From Patescibacteria group bacterium (lineage in GTDB: Bacteria > Patescibacteriota > Minisyncoccia > Minisyncoccales > PEYH01): DNA of 64,000 bases. Location of the stretch: the NCBI GenBank assembly GCA_018817645.1, contig JAHITK010000014.1, forward strand, positions 9,989 through 73,988, given 5' to 3'. The position numbers were made by a program, and so were the translations under genes. Position 1 is the stretch's first letter. Each line of letters starts with the position of its first letter. Below are positions 6,507 through 43,933 of this stretch, in pieces. The notes below the pieces were generated by a model. That model was not told where the DNA came from. It saw only the letters and a list, made by a program, of their open reading frames with translations, and made no database searches.

Positions 6507-7583
6507 CTACCCGTCGGTTTTGATTTCTATGACATCCCCGTCCTGAACAACATATTCCTTGCCTTCGGTGCGAAGCAGACCCTTTTCTCTGGCACCGGAA
6601 AATCCCCTGCAATCAATTAGGTCTTTCCAATTTATGACTTGCGCTTTGATGAAATGAGTTTCAAAATCAGTATGGACCACCCCGCCTGCCTGGGGCGCCG
6701 TAGACCCTCTTTTTAGCGTCCATCCCCGCACCTCATTAGTTGCCACGGCAGTAAAAAAGGTTATCAAATCAAGCAGTTTATAACATTCCTTTATTAAAAC
6801 ATCTAATTGAATTTCCGCTGGCAAGTCAAGTTCAATTCTTTGTTCAGCGGTAAAATCAGCTGCCTCAAGTTCTGTCAAGACATCGGCTATCAGGAAAGGC
6901 CAATTATTCTTCTTGAATGTCTCTACCACTTCTACTGAAACCTCGCTTTCTGTGCCATTAAGCAAAAAGAGCCGCTTTTTCATAGTCAACAATTGATAAC
7001 TATTTAGAATTTTCCTTTCCTCCTCGCTCCATTGCGATTCAAACAAGAGCTCCCCTTCCCGCAGTAATTTCCACGCCTTTACAACCGCTGACATCTCTTT
7101 TTCCAGATTTTTGTCTTTCGCTTTGCCTTTCAATTCCTTTTCCAGCGACTCCGCTCTTTTTTCAATGGTCTCCAAATCCTTGAGAACCATTTCCATATCC
7201 AAAATCTCTTTTTCTTCCAAAACATCAATTTTAGACCGCGTATTAACGACATCTTCTTTGTTAAAACATCGTAAAACATAGACAATGGCATCCACTTCCC
7301 GGATATTTGCCAAAAATTTGTTTCCTAATCCCTCTCCTTGGCTTGCCCCCCTGACCAGCCCGGCAATGTCAACAAATTCCACGGTAGTATAAATTTTCTT
7401 GGCCGAAGAAGTAAGTTCGGCCAATTTGTCTATTCTCTGGTCAAGGACGGCAACCACGCCCACATTCGGGGCTATGGTGCAAAAAGGATAATTCGCGCGG
7501 TCAACCTCTTTTTTGGTTATGGCTTGGAAAAGCGTTGACTTGCCCACATTGGGCAAACCGACGATTCCTATACTCAAAGACAT
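6507..7583 (-). CDS. ychF: Ribosome-binding ATPase YchF
   Basis: P-loop [12 protein letters not shown]-terminal TGS-like domain ([23 protein letters not shown]). 358 aa. Confidence 0.9.
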
Positions 7584-8050: not shown

Positions 8051-8725
8051 TCACTCATCTTTTTTCATAAATTTGGTGGTTTCGGAATAAAGGACTAATT
8101 TTGAACCGCCGTCAACATTTTTAATGGTTAAAATTTGCTCGGTCTTGCTGATAAATTCTCCTTGCAAAAAAACGTTGCCCGCAGTTCTCCCCGGTTGATT
8201 GGAAATATCGGGCAAGGATCCGCTGTCCCTCAATGTTTGGATTGCTTGCCTCTTTTCTTCCGGAGTCATATTTTCAAATCCCGCCGGCATATTCGGCATA
8301 TTCGCCGGCGCTTGACCGGCATTGGGCATATTCGCGTTAGAGGGAGTGCCGGTGGCGTTGAGACGAAAATTTATCTGCCCGGCATTAGGAACATTGGCGA
8401 AGTTCTCGACAGAGCCGATATAAACCATATTGGCGCTAACGCTTCCGTCCGGGTTGTCGGTTCCTTCAATCATAAGGTAATCCCCTGCTTTTAAGTCCTC
8501 CGCGCTTGCTTCGGAAAATCCTTGAAGAAAGGTTTCCATTCCTCTTGCGTCGTCCGTTGTTGTCGCATTAGCCGTCTGTTGTCCGCTGATAGCAGATTTA
8601 TCATCAACGGATTTCAAACTGTTGGTCAGAAGAATTATTCCCGCGATAATCCCGACCGCCACCAAAACCGCGGGTATTATAATCGCAATTTTTAATTTTA
8701 TATTTTTAAATTTTAAAGAAAACAT
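8051..8725 (-). CDS. Hypothetical membrane-anchored/secreted protein
   Basis: ATG at 8725 (the track start at 8734 is TTG). N-terminal TM IAIIIPAVLVAVGIIAGIILL. N/A/P/M-rich low-complexity centre. Confidence 0.6.
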   Translation of the reverse strand: MFSLKFKNIKLKIAIIIPAVLVAVGIIAGIILLTNSLKSVDDKSAISGQQTANATTTDDARGMETFLQGFSEASAEDLKAGDYLMIEGTDNPDGSVSANMVYIGSVENFANVPNAGQINFRLNATGTPSNANMPNAGQAPANMPNMPAGFENMTPEEKRQAIQTLRDSGSLPDISNQPGRTAGNVFLQGEFISKTEQILTIKNVDGGSKLVLYSETTKFMKKDE

Positions 8726-18458: not shown

Positions 18459-18551
18459 TTTTCCTTAGGTGCTGGCGATAATATGCCTAATAATTTATCT
18501 TTCTCATGTAAAAGAAAAAAATAGAAGAAAAAATAGAGTTGACCCCATTTT
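18459..18551. repeat. Dispersed ~85-bp repeat (copy 1) ending in AAAAAATAGAGTTGACCCCATTTT
   Basis: Matches 22168-22247 base for base, except for a 13-nt internal duplication. Confidence 0.85.
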
Positions 18552-22140: not shown

Positions 22141-22247
22141 AAAAATAGATTTGACACCAATTTTTATTTTTCCTTAGGTGCTGGCGATAATATGCCTAAT
22201 AATTTATCTTTCTCATGTAAAAGAAAAAATAGAGTTGACCCCATTTT
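22141..22247. repeat. Dispersed ~85-bp repeat (copy 2) flanked by a degenerate and a perfect TAGAGTTGACCCCATTTT motif
   Basis: 22168-22247 matches 18459-18551. 22141-22165 (AAAAATAGATTTGACACCAATTTTT) is a degenerate motif copy. Confidence 0.85.
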
Positions 22248-34422: not shown

Positions 34423-37400
34423 TTATAATCTTACCAATTCCGATTCCTTTTTCTTTCTCATCCAATAATAACCGGTGAAAACAAGAATTCCGCTTAATAT
34501 CAGGATAAACAATATCACCAGCCAGAAGGCCAAACTGCCGATTATTTTAACAATCTGGGAAAAGATTGTTCCAGCCGCGGCCGCGCCTCCCGCGCCTTTC
34601 AAGACCTCGATGCTTACACTGTCGCTGGTGGTTTTATCCTCTCCATAAACAACCGTGCTCAAATTGCTTAAATAAGTGGTTCCGGAAGTGAATTCGCCAG
34701 CATCGCCCACTTTGGCGTCAAAGCTTATATATTTAGATTGCTTTGGAGCCAAGGTTCCCAAACCAAACCCAGCCAGAATATTGCCCACGAACGGCGTATC
34801 ATCCACTTTCAGATTTCCTAAATAATCAAGGTTTGTCGGCAAAAAATTTTCAAGCTTAACATCGGAAATGGTTTCATTGCCGGAAGAAGCCACAATAATC
34901 AAGAATGAAAGCTTGTCTCCGGGTTCTGCTGACAGGGTTTTCTTCCAACCTTCGTCAATGCCTGACTTTTTTACCAAAACAGAGACAGCCACGGTGTCAG
35001 CCATCGGAAGTTTTACATCAACCGGGCATTCGCAAAATGTCTCATTGCAATTTACTGCCCCGTCTCCGCAATGCTGACAACTTGAACAATAGTCAGTTGA
35101 GTCCTTGCTGCAAGTTGTGCCATCGCACTTTAAGTCATGATAACATCTGTCTATGTCGCATCTGTCTAAGGTGCAGGAGTTGTCGTCCTCGCAATCCATA
35201 TATTTGCTTAAGCGCGTTCCGGAAGAATTATACCAATAGACATCATTATCATAACACTGCCTTGTCTGAATTATCGGAGTCACTGAACAAGTTGAATTAT
35301 AATTACAGGTTGAGTCGCCCACCGAACAGGTTTCATTGCTTGAACAATAGTCAGCCACTATCCAGGAAGACCAATTGCCCCAGCTTCCCCAATTGCCGTC
35401 GCATTGGGCGCTCTCTCCGGAGCAATATCTAAATCTTATTCTGGTGCTCTGCCCGACATCTGCGCCGCATCCCGCTCCCCAAGGGCAGCTGTATTGGGTT
35501 TCTGATTCGCTCTTGCAAACAGCGCTTGAACTCTTATAATTTTGCCCGTCGCAACAGGGTCCGGAAGTGCATTCCTGTTCTGCCACGCACTGGCCGTTCT
35601 TGCAGGTCTCATCGCTGGCGCATTTTTTCACAAAAGATTTCTGCAGAGATGAATTGCTGAAGCAGGAACTGCCGGAACATCCTTTGTCATAGCAAGTCCT
35701 CTCTTTATAGACGCTGTCTCCGGAGCAATAATAAGAGCTCCAGGAGGTACAAGAGTCGTCTCCGCAATCCTCATATCTGTCTTGCCTGCTGTTATTGGAA
35801 TCATACCAATAAACATCGTTGTTGTAACAGGATTTGTGGTCGTTTTGATTGTAACAAGAGTAGCAGTTGTTGCAATTATTGCAGGTATCACAGATATTGC
35901 ATCCGCAACTGGAATCATAATTGCAAGTATATTCAGCGACGCCCCCGGTGCAATACCAACTTGGCTTTTGGTTGCTGTTACAGCTTCCATAACCGCAATA
36001 AGTCGGTCCCAAAATGCTCTCAACCGGAGACCATTCCAAGCAGGAATCGGAATCATAATTTCCGCAGGTCTGCTTATGGGCGCTGTCATAACATCTTACC
36101 TGTCCGGAAAAAGCGCATTCGCTTTGGCAGGCCTGTCCGCAATCTTGCGAACAATTGTATTGATTTTCTCCGCATTCAGAATTGCAGATTCCATTTCCAC
36201 AGGAATAACACTGCGAGGAACAGGTAGAATCGCTGTATGTGCAGGTTCCGCCCGAACAATAATAGTCCCGGCGAGTACTGCCGATGCAAGTGTCAGTCCC
36301 GCAGCTTTCCGGACTTGACCATTCTAAACAGGAATCCGAGTCGTAATTTCCGCAAATTTTCTTTGAACCGCTGTCATGACAGGTTGTCTGGCCAGTTACA
36401 GCGCATTCATCCTGGCAAGTGGGTGGATTACAGCTTGAATCGCTTACGCATTTTGATTCAAATTGAGTATCGCAACTATTGGGACTGCAAGTTCTTGTCC
36501 GGGTTTGATACATTTGGCCTGAACCGCATCCATCTTGAGCGCATCCCTGATTGCTCCAAGAACTCCAATCATTGCATTGGCAAGTAGTCACGCACTGGCC
36601 ATTGCTGCAGATTTTCCCGATTGCCGAACAATCCTGATAATTTTCCCATTGATTTTGAGCAAAACAAACAGCGCCTGAACATCCTCTAACAATCTTTTTT
36701 CTTTGAACCATATTGCCAGAGCATTGATAATCGTCTGTCCAGAAATCACTGCCGCATTCGTCATATTTATCTTCTCTGGCGCTGCAGGAATCATACCAGT
36801 AAACATCATTGTCATAGCAGGACTTGTAATTGTGGGTGGTGCAAGTAGTCACGCATTGTCCATTGCTACAGACCTTGCCATCGTCAGCGCAATTATATTC
36901 ATTCACCCACTCGTTATAGTTATAGCAAGAAGAACCGGAACATCCTTTCTTGTTCTTTTCTCTTTGAACCCAGTCCCCGGAACATTGGTAATTAGTAGTC
37001 CAGGAATCGCTCCCGCAGTTCTGGCTGGTTTGCCACACTGCATTGGAAAAACAAGAAGCATTGGAGCATCCTTTATCTAACCATTTTCTTTGTAAAGTGT
37101 TTCCTGAACATTGATAATCGCTGGTCCAGCCGCTGGTTCCGCATTCGCTGGATTTATCCTCTCTCGCCTGACAGGAGTTGTACCAGTAAACATCATTGTC
37201 ATAGCAGGACTTGTAATTGTGGGTGGTGCAAGTAGTCACGCATTGTCCATTGCTGCAGGTTTTTCCACTGGTTGAACAATTCTGATAATTTTCCCATTGA
37301 TTGTAATTATAGCAAGAAGAACCGGAACATCCTTTCTTGTTCTTTTCTCTTTGGATCCAATCCCCGGAACATCTGTAATTGTCGGTCCAGGAGTCGGAAC

Positions 37401-37953
37401 CGCAATCCCCGTAATCTTTCCAAATTGTATTGCTGAAACAGGAACTCCCAGAGCATCCTTTATCCAGCCACTTCCTTTGCAAATGGCTCCCGGAACATTG
37501 ATAATCGTTGGCCCAACCGGTAGAGCCGCAGTCCTGATATATCCCTTCTCTGGCGCCGCAGGAATTATACCAATAGACATCATTATTATAGCAGGCCCGA
37601 TGATCTTGAGGGGTGCAAGAATTCACGCACATCCCATTCTGGCAGACAGTGCCGGAAAGACAACTCATAGAAGAGGACCATTCTAAACAGACATCGCAGT
37701 CATAGTTTCCGCAGGCCTTGTAATGAGTGGAATCGGTGCAAGCTCTTTGGTCATAATATGAGCATTCGTCGGAGCAACTTGTGCCGCATCCCCATTGCCC
37801 ATAAACCACATAACTCTTAGAAAAATTAGAGTCATCTCCATTAGAATCAAAATGCGCCTTTATTAAAGGTTGGATTAAAAATGCGAGAGCAAAAAGAGTG
37901 ATAACAATAAAAAATACTCTTAATTTCTTCATATTTTTTGTGCCGTATGGCAC
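34423..37953 (-). CDS. Giant cysteine-rich repeat surface protein with C-terminal membrane anchor
   Basis: 1176 aa. Signal peptide, 3 tandem 129-aa Cys-rich modules (387-bp DNA period, e.g. 36811 vs 37198), WSxWS/CGxG...RTRTC thrombospondin-type-1-like motif, Ig-like C-domain, terminal TM + RKKK. Confidence 0.8.
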   Translation of the reverse strand: MPYGTKNMKKLRVFFIVITLFALAFLIQPLIKAHFDSNGDDSNFSKSYVVYGQWGCGTSCSDECSYYDQRACTDSTHYKACGNYDCDVCLEWSSSMSCLSGTVCQNGMCVNSCTPQDHRACYNNDVYWYNSCGAREGIYQDCGSTGWANDYQCSGSHLQRKWLDKGCSGSSCFSNTIWKDYGDCGSDSWTDNYRCSGDWIQREKNKKGCSGSSCYNYNQWENYQNCSTSGKTCSNGQCVTTCTTHNYKSCYDNDVYWYNSCQAREDKSSECGTSGWTSDYQCSGNTLQRKWLDKGCSNASCFSNAVWQTSQNCGSDSWTTNYQCSGDWVQREKNKKGCSGSSCYNYNEWVNEYNCADDGKVCSNGQCVTTCTTHNYKSCYDNDVYWYDSCSAREDKYDECGSDFWTDDYQCSGNMVQRKKIVRGCSGAVCFAQNQWENYQDCSAIGKICSNGQCVTTCQCNDWSSWSNQGCAQDGCGSGQMYQTRTRTCSPNSCDTQFESKCVSDSSCNPPTCQDECAVTGQTTCHDSGSKKICGNYDSDSCLEWSSPESCGTDTCIGSTRRDYYCSGGTCTYSDSTCSSQCYSCGNGICNSECGENQYNCSQDCGQACQSECAFSGQVRCYDSAHKQTCGNYDSDSCLEWSPVESILGPTYCGYGSCNSNQKPSWYCTGGVAEYTCNYDSSCGCNICDTCNNCNNCYSCYNQNDHKSCYNNDVYWYDSNNSRQDRYEDCGDDSCTSWSSYYCSGDSVYKERTCYDKGCSGSSCFSNSSLQKSFVKKCASDETCKNGQCVAEQECTSGPCCDGQNYKSSSAVCKSESETQYSCPWGAGCGADVGQSTRIRFRYCSGESAQCDGNWGSWGNWSSWIVADYCSSNETCSVGDSTCNYNSTCSVTPIIQTRQCYDNDVYWYNSSGTRLSKYMDCEDDNSCTLDRCDIDRCYHDLKCDGTTCSKDSTDYCSSCQHCGDGAVNCNETFCECPVDVKLPMADTVAVSVLVKKSGIDEGWKKTLSAEPGDKLSFLIIVASSGNETISDVKLENFLPTNLDYLGNLKVDDTPFVGNILAGFGLGTLAPKQSKYISFDAKVGDAGEFTSGTTYLSNLSTVVYGEDKTTSDSVSIEVLKGAGGAAAAGTIFSQIVKIIGSLAFWLVILFILILSGILVFTGYYWMRKKKESELVRL

Positions 37954-42384: not shown

Positions 42385-42621
42385 CTATGACTTTTTGCGC
42401 CCAATTTCATACCGTACTGATTCAAGCGGTTCCCATGGTACCAGCTCATCGCCTTCCAGCCCTCCGTACAACAACGCCAGCGCAAATGCCTGTTCTATCA
42501 GGGTGATTAAGCGTTCCAACTCTTTCCCTCTTACGATTTTCCCTTTGCCATCTTTGGTCACCCTAATCAAGGCAACGGTCTTGTGTTTTTCTTTTTCATC
42601 CCTATCAAACATGCCCATCAT
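42385..42621 (-). CDS. Hypothetical small protein
   Basis: 78-aa ORF with no recognisable motifs. Confidence 0.4.
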   Translation of the reverse strand: MMGMFDRDEKEKHKTVALIRVTKDGKGKIVRGKELERLITLIEQAFALALLYGGLEGDELVPWEPLESVRYEIGRKKS

Positions 42622-42818
42622 AATTTTTCACCTCCTCTGCGCCTTTTGGTTCTCAAAGGGCTAATTTGATAATACTCCCACGACCGCAAAAAAACAATAA
42701 AAAACACCTTGCCGCTGGCGCGAGGCGAGGCGAAATGTTTGACAAAAGCCCTTCGTCGCTTCGCTCCTCAGAGTAAAGGAACAAGTAAATTCGCTTTGCT
42801 CATTAACTTGTTCTATTA

Positions 42819-42970
42819 TGGGCGCAGATGGACTCGAACCATCGACCTCTATCGTGTGAGGATAGTCCCGATTTTGTTTTGGCTCTGCCAAAGTACAAAA
42901 TCGTGGATCCTCGACATTATACTAAATCAAAGATTTAGATAATGTCGGGACGCTCTAACTTCACCCGCCC
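42819..42970 (-). other. tRNA-Val(CAC)-like gene interrupted by an 85-nt structured insertion (intron-bearing tRNA or pseudogene)
   Basis: The 3' part is canonical: CTATC CTCACAC GATAG AGGTC GATGG TTCGAGT CCATC TGCGCCC A. The candidate 5' part GGGCGGG TG AAGTTA GAGC G lies 85 nt upstream. The insertion (42866-42950) is closed by TCCCG/CGGGA and folds into two long hairpins. Confidence 0.5.
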
Positions 42971-42983
42971 AAATTTGGGCATA

Positions 42984-43057
42984 TGGGCGTGTGCGGATTC
43001 GAACCACAGATCTCACGGATGTGAACCGTGCGCTCTAACCAACTGAGCTACACGCCC
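42984..43057 (-). tRNA. tRNA-Val(CAC)
   Basis: Reads GGGCGTG TA GCTC AGTTGGTTA GAGC G CACGG TTCACAT CCGTG AGATC TGTGG TTCGAAT CCGCA CACGCCC A. Confidence 0.85.
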
Positions 43058-43153
43058 AAATTTTCGGCGGGCAGGCCTGAGCCATGCGCCCTGTCTGTTT
43101 ATCTTACTACTTTAATTTTTGCCAGTAAAGGACTACAATGAAGCTATAAAGCT

Positions 43154-43933
43154 ATGCAGGTATTTGATTATCACATCAATCCAAAATCAAAAAAGGGCTT
43201 AATATTCAAAAGCTTCTATTTCCAGCCGGAAAATGAACGCGAAAAGCCGCTGGGCGGCTTGTGCATCATCGGAGAATTTTCCGACTCCCTTTCCAAAGAC
43301 AAAAAAATCCTTGAGGACTTAAGCCATACCATCAAAGAAGAATACTTTTCCGATGTCCATAAGACGCCCATAGAAGCCCTGAAATCAGGCCTTCAAAAAG
43401 GAAACCAATATCTTGAAGAGCTGTCTCTTCAGGGAAATGTAAGATGGCTCGGAAACTTGAGCATAGCCGTGATTGCTGTCAAGGACTTTGATATTCATTT
43501 CTCTAAGGCCGGAAATATTAAATTGCTTCTTTTAAGAAGCGGAGAATATCACGACATTGGCGAAAACTTGGAGTTCCAAAAATCATCACCCGATAAGCCG
43601 ACCCAAATATTCTCCAATATCGCTTCCGGAAATCTTGTGGACAAGGACCGGATTATTATCCTGACCCAAGAGGTGTTTGAATTTTTTCACCTTCATATCG
43701 CAGAGCCAATTTCCAATTTTCCGGGCGTAACCCCTCAAATATTATCCAAGCTCTTAAAGGACAATAAAAGCGAGATGAAAGAATATTCCGGCGTGATGTT
43801 TGTCATAGCGATTAATAAAAAGGGCCGAAGAAGACGATGGTGGCCTGCTATCAAGACCCCTTTGGGCAAAAAAATAGCCCTGATTATCGCGCTTATTCTT
43901 TTATTACTTCTGTCTTATTGGATATTCAGGTAA
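43154..43933 (+). CDS. Hypothetical protein with C-terminal TM anchor
   Basis: 259-aa ORF. C-terminal IALIIALILLLLLSYWIF. One of the few plus-strand genes. Confidence 0.55.
   Translation: MQVFDYHINPKSKKGLIFKSFYFQPENEREKPLGGLCIIGEFSDSLSKDKKILEDLSHTIKEEYFSDVHKTPIEALKSGLQKGNQYLEELSLQGNVRWLGNLSIAVIAVKDFDIHFSKAGNIKLLLLRSGEYHDIGENLEFQKSSPDKPTQIFSNIASGNLVDKDRIIILTQEVFEFFHLHIAEPISNFPGVTPQILSKLLKDNKSEMKEYSGVMFVIAINKKGRRRRWWPAIKTPLGKKIALIIALILLLLLSYWIFR

Follow-up and report, generated by a model that had tools for sequence, protein, structure and literature searches.

A tRNA-Val(CAC) gene of a Patescibacteria genome is interrupted by two inserts, one of which contains a second tRNA-Val(CAC): a candidate small cassette carrying a replacement tRNA

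The locus described here lies in the window, the whole 64-kb stretch of DNA that was analysed, which is part of a 133.7-kb contig from a Patescibacteria (CPR) metagenome-assembled genome. The tRNA locus is flanked on one side by a gene for a ClpB-like ATPase and two small ORFs and on the other side by a gene for a 259-aa protein of unassigned function, which is followed by the genes for ribosomal proteins L7/L12 and L10. The flanking genes are housekeeping genes and are syntenic with those of relatives; the 259-aa protein has 25 homologue clusters, and the gene order is conserved. Pfam searches of the 56 largest ORFs of the window revealed no integrase, transposase, RtcB, or splicing endonuclease, nor did the scanned ORFs include an HUH transposase. 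The Pfam scan did show a normal RNase III gene in the window.

The first-pass annotation had flagged a 152-nt feature (42819 to 42970) as a Val-type tRNA gene with an 85-nt insertion, and all of the flagged elements were found on the minus strand at the coordinates it gave. Read 5' to 3' on that strand, the locus begins further upstream, with the promoter-like sequence TTTACT-17 nt-TAAGAT of the resident tRNA-Val gene (43101 to 43129), which has been conserved ahead of the tRNA in those relatives that were read. Judged from its sequence, this would be the sole evident promoter for the whole composite; a strict promoter scan omitted it because only 8 of the 12 consensus positions matched. It is followed by a 5' fragment of the resident tRNA-Val(CAC) gene, positions 1 to 15 (GGGCGCATGGCTCAG; 43077 to 43091), which spans the 5' strand of the acceptor, U8-G9, and the 5' strand of the D stem. 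The D-loop is then occupied by a 117-nt insert, insert A, which consists of a left flank (GCCTGCCCGCCGAAAATTT; 43058 to 43076), an intact tRNA-Val(CAC) that starts 19 nt past the old 5' fragment (N; 42984 to 43057), and a right flank (TATGCCCAAATTTGGGCGGGTGAA; 42960 to 42983) that holds the palindrome GCCCAAATTTGGGC and the GGGCGGG motif. The nested tRNA was called by ARAGORN, scored 68.8 bits with Rfam, and is presumed to be the working gene; its anticodon is identical to that of the resident gene, and its stems are unlike those of the resident gene. The two flanks of insert A form inverted repeats, CCCGCC[G]AAA(A)TTT ... AAATTTGGGCGGG (the flanks are also written CCCGCCNAAATTT...AAATTTGGGCGGG), and CCCGCC and AAATTT of the left flank pair with the right flank as a closing helix in the minimum-energy fold.

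Downstream of insert A lies GTTAGAGCG (42951 to 42959), corresponding to resident positions of about 19 to 26, i.e., the end of the D-loop, the 3' strand of the D stem, and G26. It is followed by the 85-nt insert B (42866 to 42950), which is bounded by the inverted repeats TCCCGA ... TCGGGA, so that A and B both have terminal inverted repeats. By folding, insert B comprises hairpin 1 (TCC-CGAC...GTCG-AGGA; 42908 to 42950) and hairpin 2 (TCCA-CGATTTTGT...ACAAAATCG-GGA; 42866 to 42907). The remainder of the resident gene, positions 27 to 73 (42819 to 42865), is made up of the anticodon arm CTATC-CTCACAC-GATAG, AGGTC, the T arm GATGG-TTCGAGT-CCATC, and TGCGCCC-A, with A73 as the last base. About 100 nt downstream, a computed scan found a terminator-like hairpin followed by a T-run (42704 to 42721), which is the probable end of the transcription unit. 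The anticodon arm, AGGTC, T arm, and TGCGCCC-A, as well as AGAGC-G and the 85-nt TCCCG...CGGGA block, are all where the first-pass annotation had placed them.

Comparison with relatives revealed how these parts fit together. Every other locus covering the site has one uninterrupted tRNA-Val(CAC) gene beside the gene for the 259-aa protein (L002, L005 to L010, L016 to L022, L036 to L038, and L041 to L044). Coverage of the gene is partial in L003, L013, L015, L039, and L040, where it is uninterrupted as far as the sequence reaches; in L004, the gene is intact up to the variable loop, at which point the contig runs into unrelated sequence. The gene in the closest relatives (87% protein identity) reads GGGCGCATGGCTCAGT[C/T]GGTTAGAGCG CTATCCTCACACGATAGAGG[T/C]CGATGGTTCGAGTCCATCTGCGCCCA. 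The three collinear pieces in the window are identical to the L005 and L016 genes at 71 of 71 positions (15/15 for the 5' fragment, 9/9 for GTTAGAGCG, and 47/47 for the 3' fragment). This orthologue match places the true 5' end of the old gene at 43077 to 43091, the intact tRNA within the D-loop, and insert B between G26 and C27, exactly at 26/27. Relative to the empty sites, insert B is base-exact, 3 nt of the D-loop at the insert A junction (TTG/TCG, including G18) are missing or replaced, and there is no target-site duplication. The neighboring gene has 65% third-position identity between the window and L005/L016. None of the 71 exon positions has changed; therefore, either the insertion is very recent or selection is continuing.

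Thus, the earlier claim that a tRNA-Val gene is interrupted here was correct, since the uninterrupted orthologues prove that a tRNA-Val(CAC) gene was once intact and the 85-nt block sits exactly at 26/27, but the interruption is not single: insert A, with its nested tRNA, had been overlooked. The canonical tRNA-Val described as lying 14 nt upstream is indeed intact at 42984 to 43057; its distance from GGGCGGG is 13 nt, however, and it is not simply an upstream neighbor but is nested within the old gene. Likewise, GGGCGGG (42964 to 42970) had been taken for the 5' acceptor strand and the 5' D-stem strand had been considered missing, whereas the true 5' end, GGGCGCATGGCTCAG, includes that D-stem strand and lies upstream of the intact tRNA. 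Orthologue alignment and ARAGORN together rule out the sequence beginning with GGGCGGG as the ancestral 5' end; it may be a tRNA-5'-like segment borne by a cassette.

The same composite, with identical junctions, is present in a second genome. L014, a JGI contig from an independent assembly and sample, encodes a neighboring protein with 77% identity to that of the window, and the third-position identity of the gene is 53%, near synonymous saturation. The non-tRNA cassette parts of the two loci are about 91% identical (84/92, with the hairpin 1 interior left out). The left flank of insert A is identical at 15 of 19 positions and is absent from empty sites; a stretch homologous to the right flank is present in L014 and is decayed in a third locus, L034. 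The nested tRNA of L014 is identical to that of the window at 65 of 66 readable bases, a run of 10 Ns masking its 3' end, and is followed by GGGTAAAGTTAGAGCG. Hairpin 2 is identical at 39 of 42 positions, with the changes confined to the bulge and loop. The interior of hairpin 1 in L014 and L034 is a different, shorter GC-rich hairpin, which stands on the same base (TCC-CGAC...GTCG-AGGA in L014). The old 5' fragment of L014 is GGGCGTATGGCTCAG, its old 3' fragment ends in TACGCCC, and one extra A is present in the 5' strand of its anticodon stem. At acceptor pair 6-67, L014 has U-A and the window has C-G, each being the local allele: L018, whose protein is 98% identical to that of L014 (84% at third positions) and whose upstream DNA is near-identical, has an empty site with the same U6-A67 allele (T6/A67). 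Occupied sites are therefore those of the window and L014, and empty sister sites are found in L016/L005/L002 and L018, respectively.

The third locus, L034, encodes a neighboring protein 93% identical to that of L014 and has an intact old tRNA gene, with a decayed relative of the cassette (roughly 125 nt) between the promoter and +1. The parts of this relic are, in order, a tRNA 5'-like remnant, TTTGG..TGAATAAAGTTGTAGTC (whose counterpart of GTTAGAGCG is the diverged GTTGTAGTC), hairpin 1', and hairpin 2', which keeps the hairpin 2 stem core GATTTTGT/ACAAAATC. Since this relic lies in the leader, the module is not tied to position 26/27. Moreover, since GTTGTAGTC is contiguous with the hairpin module outside the tRNA, the origin of GTTAGAGCG in the window is ambiguous: it may be a piece of the resident gene or a cassette-borne copy.

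These independent loci bear on whether the composite could be an assembly artefact, namely, two strain variants of the tRNA-Val locus joined as a chimera. The region is palindromic, the nested and resident tRNAs share an 18-nt stretch, the L014 scaffold has its 10-N gap at the palindrome, and the window protein is recorded on one contig only. However, L014 has the same order of parts, with point differences, in data from a different sample, project, and assembler; a related module is present in a third assembly (L034); and an assembly made at k = 141 would not join via an 18-nt repeat. Because L014 and L034 are independent assemblies, we reject an artefact, the chance of which we regard as negligible.

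The two long hairpins described earlier for the 85-nt block were borne out by folding. The block has a predicted energy of -40 kcal/mol compared to -14 +/- 2.9 for shuffled sequences (z = -9.0; 0 of 200 shuffles folded as well), and the 152-nt flagged feature has a z of -7.4. When the two hairpins were compared across the three copies, 91% of cells were paired, and 6 of 27 pairs had changes on both sides. Comparing the locus across relatives had been proposed as a check for compensatory changes in the insert helices, and pairing is indeed kept; with n = 3 sequences, this shows only that the hairpins persist through sequence change and is not proof of action as RNA. The module, with or without the tRNA 3' domain, could be a structured RNA (one acting in the processing, stability, or termination of the tRNA-Val transcript, or a small RNA that resembles a tRNA). 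Consistent with such a role, it shares the tRNA-Val transcription unit in 3 of 3 genomes, lying between promoter and tRNA sequence, and compensatory changes keep the hairpins even in the diverged L034. On the other hand, it has no match in Rfam, palindromes can be maintained at the DNA level without an RNA function, and the module is dispensable, because most relatives lack it and have a normal tRNA-Val gene. We therefore consider a structured RNA quite unlikely.

We then asked what the tRNA finders make of the composite. ARAGORN, one of the checks suggested earlier, made no call for the interrupted gene (42819 to 42970), and Rfam model RF00005 matched only its 3' part (42819 to 42885), at 22.1 bits, which is below the gathering score of 29. 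Taking an RF00005 score of at least 29 bits or an ARAGORN call as the mark of a canonical tRNA, the nested tRNA is canonical and 42819 to 42970 is not. The parse of GGGCGGG...AGAGCG plus the 3' part was likewise not called, whereas the three pieces 43077 to 43091, 42951 to 42959, and 42819 to 42865, when joined, were called tRNA-Val(CAC). As RNA, the joined exons 1, 2, and 3 would read GGGCGCAUGGCUCAG...CUAUCCUCACAC... (~74 nt), with exon borders of ...GGCUCAG/GUUAGAGCG and ...AGAGCG/CUAUCC. In the minimum-energy fold of the 273-nt composite (z = -9), the acceptor stem, D stem, and T arm of the old tRNA are closed around the inserts.

These features raise the question of whether the interrupted gene is functional, with A and B removed from the RNA either by splicing of an unknown type or by RNase P, Z, or III cuts followed by ligation or assembly, so that there would be two tRNA-Val(CAC) species. 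Inserts A and B would then be helix-closed intervening elements of an undescribed class, which home into the tRNA genes of bacteria and are taken out at the RNA level; from one promoter would come both the nested tRNA and an old tRNA-Val that is rejoined or assembled piecewise. If true, this would be a bacterial counterpart of the archaeal multi-intron or split tRNAs, one whose tRNA "intron" itself contains a tRNA gene. In its favor, helices close both inserts exactly at the insertion points, and the predicted fold preserves the acceptor stem, D stem, and T arm of the old tRNA; insert B is exact to the base; all 71 exon positions match working orthologues, although the neighboring gene is 65% identical at third positions; the joined exons are called as a tRNA; hairpin pairing is kept through sequence change; and tRNA introns are tolerated by Patescibacteria (PMC13011429).

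Several observations argue against removal at the RNA level. A group I intron would have a P3-P8 core detectable with RF00028, a length of ~200 nt or more, and a position after a U in the anticodon loop, and Rfam found no match to Intron_gpI (RF00028) at E <= 10 in 42600 to 43200 and the inserts are too short, so the earlier exclusion of a group I intron holds. The bulge-helix-bulge (BHB) motif, in which a 4-bp helix lies between two 3-nt bulges where exon and intron meet, had also been reported as not obvious in the insert, and inspection of the sequence and folds revealed none: the ends of A (CCCGCC/GGCGGG) and B (UCCCGA/UCGGGA) pair directly, and the splice points are opposed in a continuous helix. 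Furthermore, joining at the A junction would leave the D-loop TTG/TCG, including G18, unrestored; L014 has an extra A in the 5' strand of its anticodon stem; release of the mature nested tRNA separates exon 1 from the remainder of the precursor; the redundant tRNA with the same anticodon in the transcription unit removes the need for the old gene; the L034 module is outside the tRNA; and RtcB and EndA were not found among the window ORFs scanned with Pfam. RNA-level removal is thus disfavored, and both a functional interrupted gene and the homing of removable elements seem to us improbable. The first-pass annotation had offered three possibilities, a novel tRNA interruption, a half-tRNA, or a pseudogene; the evidence favors a pseudogene or junction relic and does not favor a spliced tRNA or a half-tRNA.

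The distribution of occupied and empty sites points to a mobile element. The insertion looks mobile because the same spot is occupied in a second, distantly related genome. In both hosts, the exons and outer flanks are local. The window's closest relatives, too, have empty sites, implying that the cassette either was gained two or more times at this position or spread horizontally with no long homology at its flanks. Two other routes were considered and rejected. Vertical inheritance with repeated precise loss is unparsimonious, as several exact double deletions plus the restoration of 3 nt would be needed. No model of a single crossover or other homologous recombination gives both junctions, and the homology on the left would be just 9 to 15 nt. 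Most simply, the sequences would reflect recurrent site-directed insertion, either of the same small cassette or of A and B jointly. Because the L034 counterpart of GTTAGAGCG adjoins the hairpins at a place outside the tRNA, the cassette may be one unit of ~211 bp that replaced positions 16 to 26, or A and B may be two insertions.

A related possibility is that the locus is the scar of an integrase-mediated event, in which a larger plasmid- or phage-like element with a tRNA-Val and a tRNA-like attP recombined with the resident gene and was later mostly deleted. Such an event would leave the 5' fragment upstream and, downstream, a hybrid made of the element's 5' half (GGGCGGG..AGAGCG), an insert at 26/27, and the native 3' part. 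The arrangement of a 5' fragment, foreign DNA, and a hybrid tRNA with an insert near 24 to 27 parallels the model in PMC3293823. In addition, IMG/VR contigs hold partial tRNA-Val(CAC) copies beginning at about position 23 to 26, which would mean that attachment-site identity blocks start where insert B sits, and GGGCGGGTGAAGTTAGAGCG and its AAATTT leader are similar to the nested tRNA's 5' half and leader. However, no integrase or other element gene is left, and the flanking gene order is that of the relatives with empty sites. An attL/attR direct repeat is also absent: by inspection, the two junctions share no core of 5 nt or more. Moreover, the hybrid cannot be folded as a tRNA (it has no ARAGORN call, a mismatch at 6/67, and no 5' D-stem strand), and deletion by chance would not recreate the same junction in two lineages, each with its own exon alleles. 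We consider an integrase scar unlikely.

We searched for further copies of the inserts. Exact, 3-mismatch, blastn-short, gapped-pattern, and covariance model searches of the window and of ~245 kb of related loci yielded no additional copy of either insert, and a 36-mer of the nested tRNA had no match in the genome collection. The known total is therefore two composite instances and one relic; we discarded the idea of an element repeated within the window, as the searches gave only these three copies. A phage or viral origin was rejected: scans of IMG/VR and a BLAST search against phage sequences returned, besides one chance match, only generic tRNA similarity and ordinary tRNA-Val(CAC) genes of other bacteria with a shared anticodon arm. 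Two matches were dismissed as due to chance: the L035 match from the viral scan lies inside a coding gene, and L011, the sole metagenome match to the ends of insert B, lies within a GC-rich coding gene.

Taking these results together, we think it probable, with moderate confidence, that the resident promoter drives a replacement tRNA brought by a small, non-autonomous, site-directed cassette and that the flagged feature is a nonfunctional junction relic. We propose that a noncoding cassette of about 211 bp landed in the resident tRNA-Val(CAC) gene between positions 15 and 27. It would consist of insert A, i.e., a whole tRNA-Val(CAC) of different sequence with inverted repeats on either side, and the two-hairpin insert B, with the D-arm-like GTTAGAGCG between them. 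The resident gene would thereby have been left in fragments (1 to 15 upstream, possibly 19 to 26, and 27 to 73 downstream) and would no longer work. A single transcript, including the nested tRNA, would probably be made from the resident promoter, because only 19 nt separate the nested tRNA from the old 5' fragment. Cleavage by RNase P together with processing at the 3' end would then release the nested tRNA, which would take over GUG decoding. That release would necessarily cut the old 5' piece from the rest, so that the old gene would be a relic. The inverted-repeat or hairpin ends may be recombination or recognition structures for the insertion machinery, and an enzyme supplied in trans would move the cassette. 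Within this reading, the flagged 152-nt feature is the right-hand insertion junction, composed of the cassette flank, the hairpin module, and the displaced native 3' two-thirds of the gene. That the cassette is mobile and site directed is what we infer from the recurrence of the insertion and the empty sister sites.

Elements of several known kinds resemble this cassette in part. Integrative elements with tRNA genes as targets carry a copy that restores the gene, and derivatives without an integrase are known as cis-mobilizable elements. As with these, the target at our locus is a tRNA gene, element sequence preserves function, the displaced native 3' part stays behind as a partial tRNA from about position 27, and the element is non-autonomous. 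However, those integrative elements replace only a 3' segment and are flanked by direct att repeats, whereas the cassette in the window has a whole tRNA of different sequence, no direct repeats, and inverted-repeat or hairpin ends. Miniature palindromic elements include MITEs, hairpin-ended IS200/IS605 derivatives, Rickettsia palindromic elements, and the RNase III-cut intervening sequences of rRNA. They are similar to the cassette in that they are short and noncoding, have hairpin or inverted-repeat ends, make no target duplication, and insert at places in a structured RNA from which a closed helix can stick out. Those families are multicopy, whereas the window cassette is without a second copy in 64 kb plus ~245 kb, and we know of no miniature palindromic element with an entire tRNA gene as its cargo. 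Disruption of tRNA genes by mobile DNA, in which a fragment is left behind and an insert is gained, has been proposed as the origin of the tRNAs of archaea that contain introns or are split; to our knowledge, bacterial examples of tRNA disruption beyond self-splicing introns are essentially undescribed.

In a limited full-text search of the literature, we came across no report of one bacterial tRNA gene lying within the D-loop of another. The closest parallel is the tRNA-Thr gene of Caldiarchaeum subterraneum, into which a mobile element integrated, disrupting it (Sugahara et al. 2012; PMC3293823). Both cases show heterogeneity at a single locus in the population, with empty and occupied alleles in close relatives, and in both a 5' fragment lies upstream, foreign DNA lies between, and the downstream copy has an element-derived insert near 24/25. 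The Caldiarchaeum case is archaeal, however, and involves a 1.8-kb element that encodes a recombinase; its insert is a BHB intron, which the host can splice. The window locus is bacterial, with ~211 bp, no recombinase gene, a complete second tRNA, and a hybrid that is not foldable as a tRNA. The multi-intron, split, and permuted tRNA genes of archaea and red algae have BHB introns at noncanonical positions (PMC3978253, PMC4090602). They are similar to our locus in having interruptions in the D-loop and near 26/27, paired insert ends, and a structure that standard tRNA finders miss; unlike them, the window locus has no BHB, a bacterial host, an imperfect D-loop exon junction, and a functional tRNA nested in an insert. 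In Patescibacteria themselves, Nakagawa et al. 2026 (PMC13011429) described group I introns in the anticodon loop of tRNAs (e.g., at 35/36), which group I covariance models (RF00028 plus one for bacterial tRNA introns) detect and which self-splice in vitro; the published work on tRNA introns in this phylum covers only these anticodon-loop group I introns. The phylum is the same, and in both cases the tRNA genes were missed by annotators because of insertions, whereas the window inserts are 85 and 117 nt long, lie at 26/27 and in the D-loop, and have no match to Intron_gpI.

These results carry a warning for annotation: tRNA finders see the nested gene only, and a naive reading of the surrounding sequence leads to a false "intron-containing tRNA." Closely related Patescibacteria display empty, occupied, and decayed states of the locus, in which a cassette of ~200 bp would bring a substitute tRNA and borrow the promoter of its victim. 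If mobile, the cassette would be an unusually small "self-compensating" element, one that breaks an essential single-copy gene and whose cargo repairs the damage, and it would provide a route for the horizontal swapping of tRNA genes.

Several repeats are present in the window, among them a perfect 62-nt direct repeat with copies at 18459-18520 and 22168-22229, spaced 3.7 kb apart. The open reading frames (ORFs) between the two copies include one encoding a Fic-domain protein, and this may be a small stretch of DNA that is mobile or has been duplicated. A related motif, AAAAATAGAGTTGACCCCATTTT, occurs five times (window 18510, 22122, 22206, 23073, and 63425). A G/T-rich family (TTTTGGATTTTGGATTT, GATTTGACATTTG) is intergenic, with members of about 40 to 75 nt found in both orientations at window positions 8725, 33340, 47694, 48114, 55066, 56613, 57999, and 58582; these often form inverted pairs between genes. 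The 8-nt unit TTAATTG(C/T) makes up a tandem array in two blocks (57404-57606), which is flanked by the genes for RNase III and NusB.

A DNA methylase gene (N6_N4_Mtase) adjoins that of an MjaI-type restriction endonuclease (window 52022-53611), and together they are a type II restriction-modification pair, flanked by the tRNA-Trp gene at one end and by the tRNA-Thr/Tyr genes at the opposite end. A 1,176-amino-acid ORF (window 34423-37953) is internally repetitive, with repeats about 387 nt long; neither this ORF nor the 379-amino-acid ORF downstream of it had a Pfam match.

Directly 3' of the old, interrupted tRNA-Val, between its 3' end and the terminator-like hairpin, lies an extra stretch of ~80 nt (window 42780-42818, minus strand) that could not be aligned with relatives and that contains the inverted repeat GAACAAGT...ACTTGTTC. 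At the syntenic site in one relative (L004; GCA_018900475.1, JAHIGD010000191.1, positions 1-400), the tRNA-Val is intact as far as the variable loop (…GATAGAGGCC), past which the T arm and acceptor are not those of the other relatives (AACCGTTCAAATCGGTTCAGACCCA); an RNase P RNA-like sequence, GGAGGAAAGTCCGGAC, is found ~200 nt farther on. Either the DNA was rearranged at this tRNA or the contig is chimeric.

Partial copies of tRNA-Val(CAC) were also found in three IMG/VR contigs (L026, positions 1-60; L030, about 6585-6660; and L031, about 1915-1990), in each case starting at approximately tRNA position 23 to 26 and extending to the 3' end. These copies look like attachment-site identity blocks belonging to elements whose integration target is a tRNA-Val of this type.
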